From a virus (lineage: Duplodnaviria; Heunggongvirae; Uroviricota; Caudoviricetes), in the IMG/VR virus record IMGVR_UViG_2690316099_000013: a stretch of 9,385 nt of DNA, one strand, 5' to 3'. Shown piece after piece: positions 2,480-3,949 of this stretch (positions within the stretch are counted from its first letter, which is position 1; every line of letters starts with the position of its first letter). A model generated the notes under the pieces. The model saw only the letters and a list, made by a program, of their open reading frames with translations, was not told where the DNA came from and did not search any database. The translations under genes and the position numbers were made by a program.

Positions 2480-2556
2480 GCGTTGTTAGCTCAGCCGGAC
2501 AGAGCAATTGCCTTCTAAGCAATCGGTCACTGGTTCGAATCCAGTACAACGCGCCA
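2480..2556 (+). tRNA. argO: tRNA-Arg (anticodon UCU; reads AGA/AGG)
   Basis: 77-nt cloverleaf: acceptor GCGTTGT/ACAACGC, D-arm GCTC-AGCCGGACA-GAGC, anticodon stem ATTGC/GCAAT with loop CTTCTAA (anticodon TCT), T-arm ACTGG-TTCGAAT-CCAGT, discriminator G, CCA encoded. An N-gap follows 3 nt downstream. Confidence 0.85.
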
Positions 2557-2715
2557 CGCNNNNNNNNNNNNNNNNNNNNNNNNNNNNNNNNNNNNNNNNN
2601 NNNNNNNNNNNNNNNNNNNNNNNNNNNNNNNNAGAGCCTTATACTGAAATATACCTGGCTCAGGATATTGTTGAAAATATTTTATGTTTGTCAAAAATAA
2701 AAGTTCTGTTAAGTA

Positions 2716-3069
2716 TTGATTGAGTGTTTGTTATACGGTCTAATGGTTTTTTCAGCATTAAATATTTATCATTCATATGGTGTGGGTAGAGTGAATATTG
2801 ATGAGGCGTCGGGGTGTTTCATCCTTAGGCAGCGTATTGATATAGTCAATGCAGCACGAGCAAAGGCCTTCAGCCGTTTGACAGTTTTGTTCTGTACTCC
2901 TGATCGTCTTTCGGGAAGAGACGTTATTATTCTGAATAGTGATGCTATACAGAGGGTTTGCGATGAGTTCATGGTTGCTAATTCAGAATTATTTGCTCTT
3001 GTTCAGGAGTACAACAGAATAGCCAGGACCTGTGGTATGGATGAACTTCGGATTACTCATCTGGGGTAG
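2716..3069 (+). CDS. Orphan hypothetical protein in the stx-equivalent cargo slot; start uncertain (ATG 2716 or 2743, GTG 2782 or 2791)
   Basis: Open frame ending TAG 3067-3069 with an AT-rich leader at 2633-2790. From the GTG at 2791, 10 of 93 codons are AGG, AGA, AUA, CGA or CGG, the codons decoded by the three adjacent tRNAs. I recognise no family. No convincing Shine-Dalgarno precedes any candidate start. Confidence 0.4.
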   Translation: MIECLLYGLMVFSALNIYHSYGVGRVNIDEASGCFILRQRIDIVNAARAKAFSRLTVLFCTPDRLSGRDVIILNSDAIQRVCDEFMVANSELFALVQEYNRIARTCGMDELRITHLG

Positions 3070-3149
3070 ATACATATCTGGATTATCACCTGTTACGGTA
3101 AAAAGTGATTGCTTACTGTTTTTGTGAATGGCATTGCAGCAGCCGGATA

Positions 3150-3236
3150 ATGTCAGTGCTGGCTGACGGTGTGCTGGTGGCGGGTGTGGTGGTTGTTGCT
3201 TTCCCGTTGCTGAAAAAGAAAACGCCAGACTGTTAG
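3150..3236 (+). CDS. Small hydrophobic peptide (28 aa, MSVLADGVLVAGVVVVAFPLLKKKTPDC); paralogue of the 3' part of the 3797-3949 gene
   Basis: ATG 3150, TAG 3234-3236. The first 11 codons are identical in protein to codons 26-36 of the downstream gene and differ only at synonymous third positions. DNA upstream (3098-3149) resembles the 5' part of the downstream gene but carries an in-frame stop, so this may be a decayed copy expressed from an internal ATG, or a remnant. Confidence 0.35.
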   Translation: MSVLADGVLVAGVVVVAFPLLKKKTPDC

Positions 3237-3374
3237 CCGGGTATCAGTTAGCGGGAGAAATTTTTAAATACTTCACAATTCAGGCGGTTGACTGTTGNNN
3301 NNNNNNNNGTGTGACTTTCTCTGTGGGCTGGTCACCCCCGGGCGCAGGCTCACCCACTAAAAGGAAAAGTCACG

Positions 3375-3800
3375 ATGTTTGGTATTTTCAAAAAGAAAAC
3401 CCGCAAGGCCATTACCGAGGTGAAGAAGATGGAGAACCGTGACGCAGTGGAGGCGACCGTCTGGGGCGCGTACTCCATTGCATACGCTGACGGCACCTGT
3501 GACGCGAAAGAAATCGCGGTACTGGAAAAAACCATTGCAGCACTTCCTGTCTTTGCGCCGTTCTCCGGTGAGATTGCACAAATGAGTGCAAATATCCGCG
3601 CCCGTTATGAAGCGTCGCCGCGTTCTGCCAATGCCGAAGCTCTTCGTCAGCTGGCTGATGTTGCCGGTACTGATGATGCAGTTAATGTGCTGTGCCTGTG
3701 TCTGGATATCGCTGACCAGGACGGTATCGCTCAGGAAGAAGAAGCGCAACTGAAGAAAATTGCGCAGGCGCTGCAGTTGCCGCTGGAGCAGTACCTGTGA
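3375..3800 (+). CDS. TerB-like domain protein (tellurite-resistance TerB / DjlA-N-like fold)
   Basis: 141-aa ORF, ATG 3375 preceded by AAGGA; stop TGA 3798-3800. It contains two segments with the TerB signature pattern (AYADGTCDAKEIAVLEKTIAAL and DIADQDGIAQEEEAQLKKIAQALQL), compared against the plasmid TerB sequence from memory. Codon usage is ordinary for E. coli, with no AGA, AGG or AUA. Confidence 0.6.
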   Translation: MFGIFKKKTRKAITEVKKMENRDAVEATVWGAYSIAYADGTCDAKEIAVLEKTIAALPVFAPFSGEIAQMSANIRARYEASPRSANAEALRQLADVAGTDDAVNVLCLCLDIADQDGIAQEEEAQLKKIAQALQLPLEQYL

Positions 3801-3949
3801 AAAGTGCGCGCCTTGTGCTGGCTGTCATCCTGTTGTTTCTGGTAGTGGTGGTTGATTTCACCGGACGACTGATGTCGGTGCTGGCAGATGGTGTGCTGGT
3901 GGCGATGGCGCTGGTCGTGCTCCGGCCTTTACTGCGTAAATCTGAATAA
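3797..3949 (+). CDS. Small two-TM membrane protein (50 aa, MKSARLVLAVILLFLVVVVDFTGRLMSVLADGVLVAMALVVLRPLLRKSE), translationally coupled to the TerB-like gene
   Basis: GTG 3797 overlaps the TerB-like stop (GTGA, 3797-3800). Alternative starts are GTG 3815 or ATG 3872. Two hydrophobic helices and a basic C-terminal tail. Stop TAA 3947-3949. Confidence 0.45.
   Translation: MKSARLVLAVILLFLVVVVDFTGRLMSVLADGVLVAMALVVLRPLLRKSE

Follow-up and report, generated by a model that had tools for sequence, protein, structure and literature searches.

Lambdoid phages carry morons, extra genes that lie between conserved neighbours; bor, lom and stx in the Q-S interval are examples. In Stx phages, stx is found downstream of ileZ-argN-argO, and phage tRNAs match codons that are used more by the phage than by its host. 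Here we describe a gene in the same kind of slot. It occupies positions 2791-3069 on the plus strand of a 9,385-nucleotide stretch of viral DNA (IMG/VR record IMGVR_UViG_2690316099_000013), which we call the window, and the gene is called ORF92 (from open reading frame, ORF). Gene calls, Pfam, PHROG and ARAGORN identify the window as the late region of a lambdoid prophage, read from left to right on the plus strand. A first-pass annotation, made from the letters alone, had taken ORF92 for an orphan cargo gene with codons tuned to three phage tRNA genes upstream of it. Our comparisons point elsewhere. ORF92 is probably a real 92-residue accessory protein of Enterobacterales phages, carried in an AT-rich cassette of the moron type, with codons that are free of bias and not tuned to the tRNAs.

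The ORF92 cassette resembles known lambdoid morons in being a discrete insert relative to near-identical relatives, in its lower GC content and in its place in the Q-lysis slot. It differs from them in that neither a promoter nor a terminator of its own could be identified convincingly. ORF92 is like stx in its slot, 3′ of the same kind of tRNA cluster and 5′ of the lysis genes, and in its richness in AGA, AGG and AUA compared with host genes. It has no sequence or structural relation to Stx, and its codon content is explained by an absence of bias and does not vary across the family with the presence of tRNAs.

Reading frame and start of ORF92

We compared the window copy (variant A) with two other versions of the gene from E. 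coli, variant B (locus L006) and variant C (loci L003 and L007). The proteins of variants B and C have 62% and 59% amino-acid identity to ORF92, and the range among the three is 59-63%. Each gene has 279 nt, and the three align with zero indels at a DNA identity of 67-72%. Substitutions among them number 19-24, 18-23 and 40-44 at codon positions 1, 2 and 3, the third position changing about twice as often as the others. The Nei-Gojobori dN/dS was 0.26-0.27 in the ORF92 frame and 0.8-1.25 in the two other frames. Outside the gene, the alignments fragment into indels on both flanks, and the leader has indels relative to both variant B and variant C. Judged from this comparison, ORF92 is a real protein-coding gene under purifying selection. 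The first-pass annotation had also read it as a real gene and had asked whether the frame might prove non-coding in homologues; no indel was seen across the 279 nt of the three variants.

RefSeq implicitly treats the same frame as a chance opening in a non-coding, AT-rich spacer. About 1300 of 5426 complete E. coli genomes (around a quarter) carry the ORF92 stretch at ≥99% identity. The chance reading would fit the missing PGAP annotation in these genomes, the lack of any Pfam or NCBIfam match and the weak ribosome-binding site. It would also fit the record of mEp460_ev081, the sole phage record with the stretch, where the gene is likewise unannotated. It does not fit a dN/dS of 0.26 without indels in three lineages at 67-72% DNA identity, set between indel-rich flanks. 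Nor does it fit the same-length homologues, down to about 20% identity, in six other genera, or the confident structure prediction. We regard a chance frame as extremely unlikely and as already refuted by the comparative data.

A minus-strand gene, which the first-pass annotation had named as a possible better explanation of the region, fared no better. The candidate is a 67-aa ORF at 2769-2972. It is initiated by ATG, and the matching frame is open in L006. Over the homologous stretch, its frame has two stops in the window and two in L003, and these stops in two variants out of three refute it. The pattern of substitutions agrees with the plus frame, and the minus-strand product matched no family. 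We rejected this ORF and give it next to no chance of being the true feature.

The start codon GTG 2791 is kept in variants A, B and C, where the surrounding GTGAATATTGATGA does not vary. In variant B an AGGAG ribosome-binding site is present, and 13 codons 5′ of the GTG the frame has a stop. PGAP annotates variant B as WP_001017777.1 with the identical GTG start. This protein is like ORF92 in its length of 92 aa, its start and its slot after a methyltransferase gene; it differs in the AGGAG site, which variant A lacks, and in having no upstream tRNA genes. Gene callers usually choose ATG 2743, which gives a product of 108 aa; 7259 blocks of the public collection list this very protein. When the alignment with variant C is extended to ATG 2743, gaps of 2 nt and 1 nt are required. 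Starts at TTG 2716 and ATG 2743 were judged unlikely on account of variant B, with its in-frame stop, and of the gapped alignment with variant C. GTG 2791, the start that the first-pass annotation had chosen, is most likely the true one, and the longer ATG 2743 form is possible for variant A. The segment at 2743-2790 (plus strand) is a possible N-terminal extension that is probably untranslated. In the subfamily from Morganella, Serratia and Xenorhabdus, an 11-residue N-terminal extension appears to be coding.

The AT-rich leader at 2633-2790 (plus strand; GC about 24-26%), which appears to be untranslated, has possible weak promoter-like sites. Weak sigma-70-like matches lie at 2671-2698, and the promoter-like matches score 9-10 of 12. 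No terminator was found 3′ of ORF92 in the window. A terminator-like hairpin with a T-rich tract was seen at 2905-2923, within the coding sequence; it is not conserved in variant C and is therefore probably due to chance. An Rfam scan of 2560-3310 gave no match, so no known small RNA (sRNA) accounts for the region.

Codon content and the adjacent tRNA genes

ARAGORN found three tRNA genes on the plus strand 5′ of ORF92, in agreement with the first-pass annotation. The first (2307-2382; Rfam tRNA, 72.5 bits) has the anticodon CAT. An identical sequence in E. coli AST85 (L022) is labelled tRNA-Ile by PGAP, and we take the gene to be tRNA-Ile2, which reads AUA after lysidine modification. The second (2390-2466; 48 bits) is a tRNA-Arg with anticodon UCG (TCG), and the third (2480-2556; 70.1 bits) is a tRNA-Arg with anticodon UCU (TCT). 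Their 3′ ends lie 235-409 bp 5′ of GTG 2791. The target codons counted here are AGG, AGA, ATA (AUA), CGA and CGG. From GTG 2791 to the stop at 3067-3069, ORF92 has 92 sense codons, and 10 of them (10.9%) are target codons (AGG 3, AGA 2, ATA 3, CGA 1, CGG 1), exactly as counted before. The TerB-like gene downstream has none in 141 codons, again as first described.

On average, target codons make up about 1.7% of codons in E. coli K-12, and ORF92 is far above this figure (P about 3e-6). It is also above the other window genes when these are pooled (3.9%; P 0.003-0.005). The expectation changes when the gene's own composition is considered. If its 10 Arg and 9 Ile residues used all synonymous codons equally, 9.7 target codons would be expected (P(≥10) 0.53), and a random sequence of the same base composition gives 7.4. 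Rare codons encode 7 of the 10 Arg and 3 of the 9 Ile, which are the proportions of an unbiased gene (4/6 and 1/3). The other frames over the ORF92 stretch hold 9 target triplets (the +1 frame) and 15 (a minus frame). The per-codon frequency is high mainly because 21% of the residues are Arg or Ile, and because these residues are encoded without synonymous bias. In its use of rare Arg codons, ORF92 is not set apart from several other window genes: the rare-Arg fraction is 0.62-0.70 in the Q-like gene, orf737, DUF3950 and nu1, and 0.70 in ORF92. The enrichment is thus real against host genes, yet it is only what a bias-free gene of 44% GC that is rich in Arg and Ile gives.

The first-pass annotation had gone further. 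It proposed that ORF92 is cargo with a codon usage selected to depend on tRNA-Ile2, tRNA-Arg(UCG) and tRNA-Arg(UCU), so that its translation is boosted or gated as proposed for stx. The excess over the pooled neighbours (10.9% against 3.9%) speaks for this proposal. Variant A, near tRNA-Ile2 and tRNA-Arg(UCU), also has 10 target codons and variants B and C have 6 each. In addition, a tRNA gene lies ≤1 kb upstream in five of seven contexts in, or derived from, the Q-lysis region. Against it stand the count itself, which equals the uniform-usage value and is near the base-composition value, the off-frame triplets, which are as rich or richer, and the neighbouring genes that use rare Arg codons equally often.

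Comparison across the family gave the same answer. Variants B and C, with no tRNA gene immediately 5′, still have 6 target codons in 92 (6.5%) each. Among ten family members, target codons make up 7.0% where a tRNA gene lies within 1 kb upstream and 7.8% where none does (P = 0.71). Homologues carry 3-10% target codons, and all but two are at or below the base-composition or uniform-usage expectation. In other genera the upstream tRNAs are Thr(UGU), Gly(UCC) and Asn(GUU), and the matching codons ACA, GGA and AAC are not enriched in the family members. The rare codons do not keep their positions. All three E. coli variants agree in a rare codon at one position alone, codon 23 (CGA); A and B also share ATA at codon 77, A and C share AGA at codon 76, and B and C share ATA at codon 89. 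The remaining 12 of the 16 rare positions are rare in a single variant. The full tRNA triplet is not the usual partner either, as variant A is usually accompanied by tRNA-Ile2 and tRNA-Arg(UCU) only. A tRNA slot just 3′ of Q is a general lambdoid feature (PMC3636060).

Selection on ORF92 codons to match the adjacent tRNAs is thus not supported by the sequences compared, and we consider such tuning unlikely. The phage tRNAs may help ORF92 translation incidentally, as they may for other late genes with an equal share of these codons. For ORF92, the codon-tRNA idea adds nothing beyond the matching of phage tRNAs and phage codons that is already known.

Family, predicted fold and genomic setting

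Remote-homology searches and structure prediction, both suggested by the first-pass annotation, gave ORF92 a family and a fold, so that the label "orphan" no longer holds. Residues 1-92 match positions 17-108 of the phrog_2873 profile (E 5.6e-58). Variants B and C match this profile too, and there is a distant match to phrog_4827 (E 2e-5 to 5e-8). The phrog_2873 profile has no function attached. Its 108 positions correspond to the ATG-2743 gene call, whereas the comparative data favour a product of 92 residues for ORF92. Profile searches gave 22 proteins among 1.84 billion cluster representatives, which were searched exhaustively, and 45 clusters in a 5.8-billion set. The hosts of the 45 clusters are Escherichia, Shigella, Salmonella, Citrobacter, Morganella, Serratia, Providencia and Xenorhabdus, and the proteins have 90-110 residues, every one labelled "hypothetical". 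Homologues of the same length with as little as about 20% identity occur in six other genera. Conserved positions of the family include C9, L12, R23, E66, Y74, N75 and A78. The family is thus already catalogued in PHROG, and it is uncharacterised and under-annotated.

Searches of Pfam, NCBIfam and PDB sequence profiles found no relative of ORF92. PADLOC gave only weak partial matches (E at least 8e-4), to coiled-coil parts of long proteins and from a few family members; matches to HEC-07, JetC and Csm2 were dismissed as weak and coiled-coil. A scan of species-representative genomes with peptide patterns, which were narrow, found one E. coli locus only. The Qin prophage of K-12 does not carry ORF92, and a weak tblastn match in it lies on the wrong strand and seems to be spurious. 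A 92-aa hypothetical gene between rem and a DUF968 gene in L001 was considered and is not an ORF92 paralogue. Nothing useful was found in the literature on ileZ/argN/argO, tciA/tciB or WP_001017777.

The AlphaFold2 model of ORF92 is a two-helix hairpin with helices at residues 3-33 and 50-81 and a predicted local distance difference test (pLDDT) value of 87.7. Two-helix hairpin proteins usually dimerise into helical bundles and act through partner binding. ORF92 resembles TraM, prefoldin beta and Rop in a way that is generic to coiled-coil hairpins; no sequence relation to them was found, and membership is not claimed.

Ten E. coli loci with the identical ORF92 protein represent the late region of a Qin-like prophage. 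They carry, in this order, RusA, Q (PF03589), ORF92, DUF3927, IraM/PmrD-like or TolA-like genes and a holin, and DUF3927 was called in nine of the ten. In the loci that were scanned for tRNAs (L001, L002 and L005), tRNA-Ile2 and tRNA-Arg(UCU) lie between Q and ORF92 and tRNA-Arg(UCG) is absent. Variant A usually lies 190-480 bp 3′ of these two tRNA genes. Variant B follows a methyltransferase gene in the same slot, and its locus has no tRNA gene. In Salmonella (L013), Q is followed by tRNA-Thr and tRNA-Gly, then by a family member and a holin. In Morganella (L014 and L015) the order is Q, a methyltransferase, the family member and a holin, with or without tRNA-Asn before the family member. In Serratia (L016 and L017) it is Q, three tRNAs, the family member and lysis genes. 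The position between Q and the holin/lysozyme genes is thus conserved in Salmonella, Morganella, Serratia and the ten E. coli loci. In the Serratia prophage (L016/L017, 4571-4645), between a tRNA(CAT) and a tRNA-Gly and 5′ of the family member, ARAGORN reported a tRNA without an assigned identity and with a two-base anticodon, "tt".

A family member of 91 aa with 34% identity was found on E. coli plasmid-like contigs (L009-L012, 4347-5276), next to a K88-like fimbrial operon and a Rep3 replicon. The tRNA-like gene 5′ of it aligns with the phage tRNA-Gly of Salmonella L013, and its anticodon is now TGT. The locus appears to be what is left of a decayed phage late region. The linkage to a tRNA gene thus persists even on a plasmid-borne phage remnant, where the tRNA has decayed. 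This would fit a conserved family with a dedicated function, encoded right after the tRNA slot and ahead of the holin as the first protein on the late transcript of lambdoid phages from Escherichia, Salmonella, Serratia and Morganella. The protein would then be no random passenger but a helical hairpin that controls a late-stage process such as lysis timing, or the use or protection of phage tRNAs. We hold such a dedicated role to be improbable.

Variant C has a different neighbour. A 241-aa AraC-family regulator with an HTH_18 domain lies 94 bp upstream of it (L003:164-889; L007:2647-3372) and resembles YdeO (E 4e-35) and GadX. In L003 it fills the interval that separates the methyltransferase gene from ORF92; in the window, this place belongs to the tRNA genes. 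The module of regulator and variant C is present in 80 of the 5426 complete genomes, many of them STEC (E. coli that produce Shiga toxin). PatE, PsrA and PsrB are prophage regulators of a similar kind (PMC10877973), and the regulator of variant C may be one of this Psr/PatE type.

Such a neighbour raises the idea that ORF92 binds a transcription factor and acts as a small co-regulator or anti-activator, in the manner of TraM or of the ANR proteins, which act on AraC-family members. The regulator next to variant C in the 80 genomes is in line with it, and TraM (chain 2q0o_C) is among the fold matches with template modelling (TM) scores of 0.70/0.74. The TraM match has an E value of 1.4, as one of hundreds of generic hairpins, and Pfam and PDB searches found no sequence similarity to known families. 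Variants A and B and the homologues from other genera have no adjacent regulator. An anti-activator role is therefore very unlikely in our view. The linkage of variant C is a lead to a regulatory partner, and it is not general across the family.

Cassette, neighbouring genes and proposed role

In the window, ORF92 lies in a low-GC cassette of 665 bp (2633-3297, plus strand) that was delimited by local blastn, GC content and the annotation of L022. At 2201-2559 and 3309-3500, the flanks match E. coli AST85 (L022) with 100% identity; in that genome the TerB gene follows the tRNA triplet directly and the cassette is absent. By local blastn, the Qin-like module of L001 matches 2633-3297 at 99.85% identity. 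The GC content is 24-47% across 2500-3299 and 50-57% in the flanks. These results together identify ORF92 and its DUF3927 neighbour as a 665-bp insert of the moron pattern, and they bear out the earlier view that the gene is foreign and AT-rich, as the closest relatives lack the cassette. Both junctions coincide exactly with runs of N, one of 73 bases on the left (2560-2632) and one of 11 bases on the right (3298-3308); the window is broken by eight such runs in all. None of the complete E. coli genomes in the collection has the full arrangement of the window, the best coverage being 85%. This layout may be a rare mosaic, or it may stem from an assembly artefact; the gene itself is unaffected by this choice. 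In L022, right after tRNA-Arg(UCU), a terminator-like hairpin (GGCUCGC-UUCG-GCGGGCC, then UUUUU) lies at 3070-3093 with a folding z-score of only -1.2; this region corresponds to the N-masked stretch 2560-2632 of the window.

The second gene of the cassette begins 35 bp past ORF92. It is a DUF3927/TciB-like gene of 43 residues at 3105-3236 on the plus strand (PF13064, E 1.7e-27; phrog_1470, TciB-like; also called by PGAP). A TerB-like (TciA-like) gene follows at 3375-3800 (plus strand; Pfam TerB, E 8.3e-8; phrog_632), and holin and lysis genes and, further downstream, the small terminase subunit lie 3′ of it. A second DUF3927 gene of 50 aa, annotated by PGAP in L022, is present at 3797-3949 and overlaps the end of the TerB-like gene. 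The window thus has two DUF3927 paralogues, one native and one from the cassette, which could offer homology for recombination.

On the left, all on the plus strand, the window has a DUF1133/Q-like antiterminator gene (74-628), a small winged-helix-like ORF of 106 aa with weak TrmB/MarR-like matches (orf737, 737-1057) and a DNA methyltransferase gene (1208-2257). For the counterpart of orf737 in L022 and L006, PGAP gives a 65-aa hypothetical protein, WP_000917767.1, in place of the 106 aa of the window. Just 3′ of the Q-like gene, 662-735 has a weak Rfam match (21.6 bits, E 0.31, below the gathering score) to IsrK, an Hfq-binding sRNA of Salmonella. The match sits where a short leader transcript of the pR′ type would be expected.

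The ORF92-DUF3927 cassette thus occupies the lambdoid slot between Q, with its tRNA cluster, and the lysis genes. All genes from the Q-like gene to the holin are on the plus strand and no terminator was found between them in the readable sequence, and for this reason ORF92 is most likely transcribed by read-through within the Q-dependent late transcript. It would be translated inefficiently from its GTG. For the product we predict a soluble hairpin of two antiparallel helices, probably dimeric, that would bind a partner protein. Our best guess is that ORF92 is a late-operon accessory protein that acts through partner binding.

Several observations weigh against this picture of a bias-free, late accessory gene. 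PGAP annotates nothing under the ORF92 match in the roughly 1300 complete genomes. The GTG of variant A has no good Shine-Dalgarno sequence and the ribosome-binding site of variant C is also poor; transcription and translation of ORF92 are steps that we infer. The structural matches to the ORF92 model are generic coiled-coil hairpins, which makes the partner-binding mechanism a guess. Some family members lie among tail genes (Providencia and Xenorhabdus) and one is on E. coli plasmids, so a function in the late or lysis region is not assured. With its own amino-acid sequence and the synonymous usage of its neighbours, ORF92 is expected to have 5.9 target codons, and its 10 are mildly high (P 0.03). 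The 10 target codons of variant A, usually found by tRNA-Ile2 and tRNA-Arg, against 6 and 6 in variants B and C do not differ significantly (P = 0.24). These last two points are too weak for a claim of tuning.

We still consider ORF92 a probable accessory gene of lambdoid phages, and its distribution carries a lesson for annotation. RefSeq shows no annotation for a gene that is clearly under purifying selection and is carried by about one in four complete E. coli genomes, probably because the gene starts with GTG behind a weak ribosome-binding site in AT-rich DNA. The conserved position of the family just 5′ of the lysis genes in several genera makes it a candidate for functional study.

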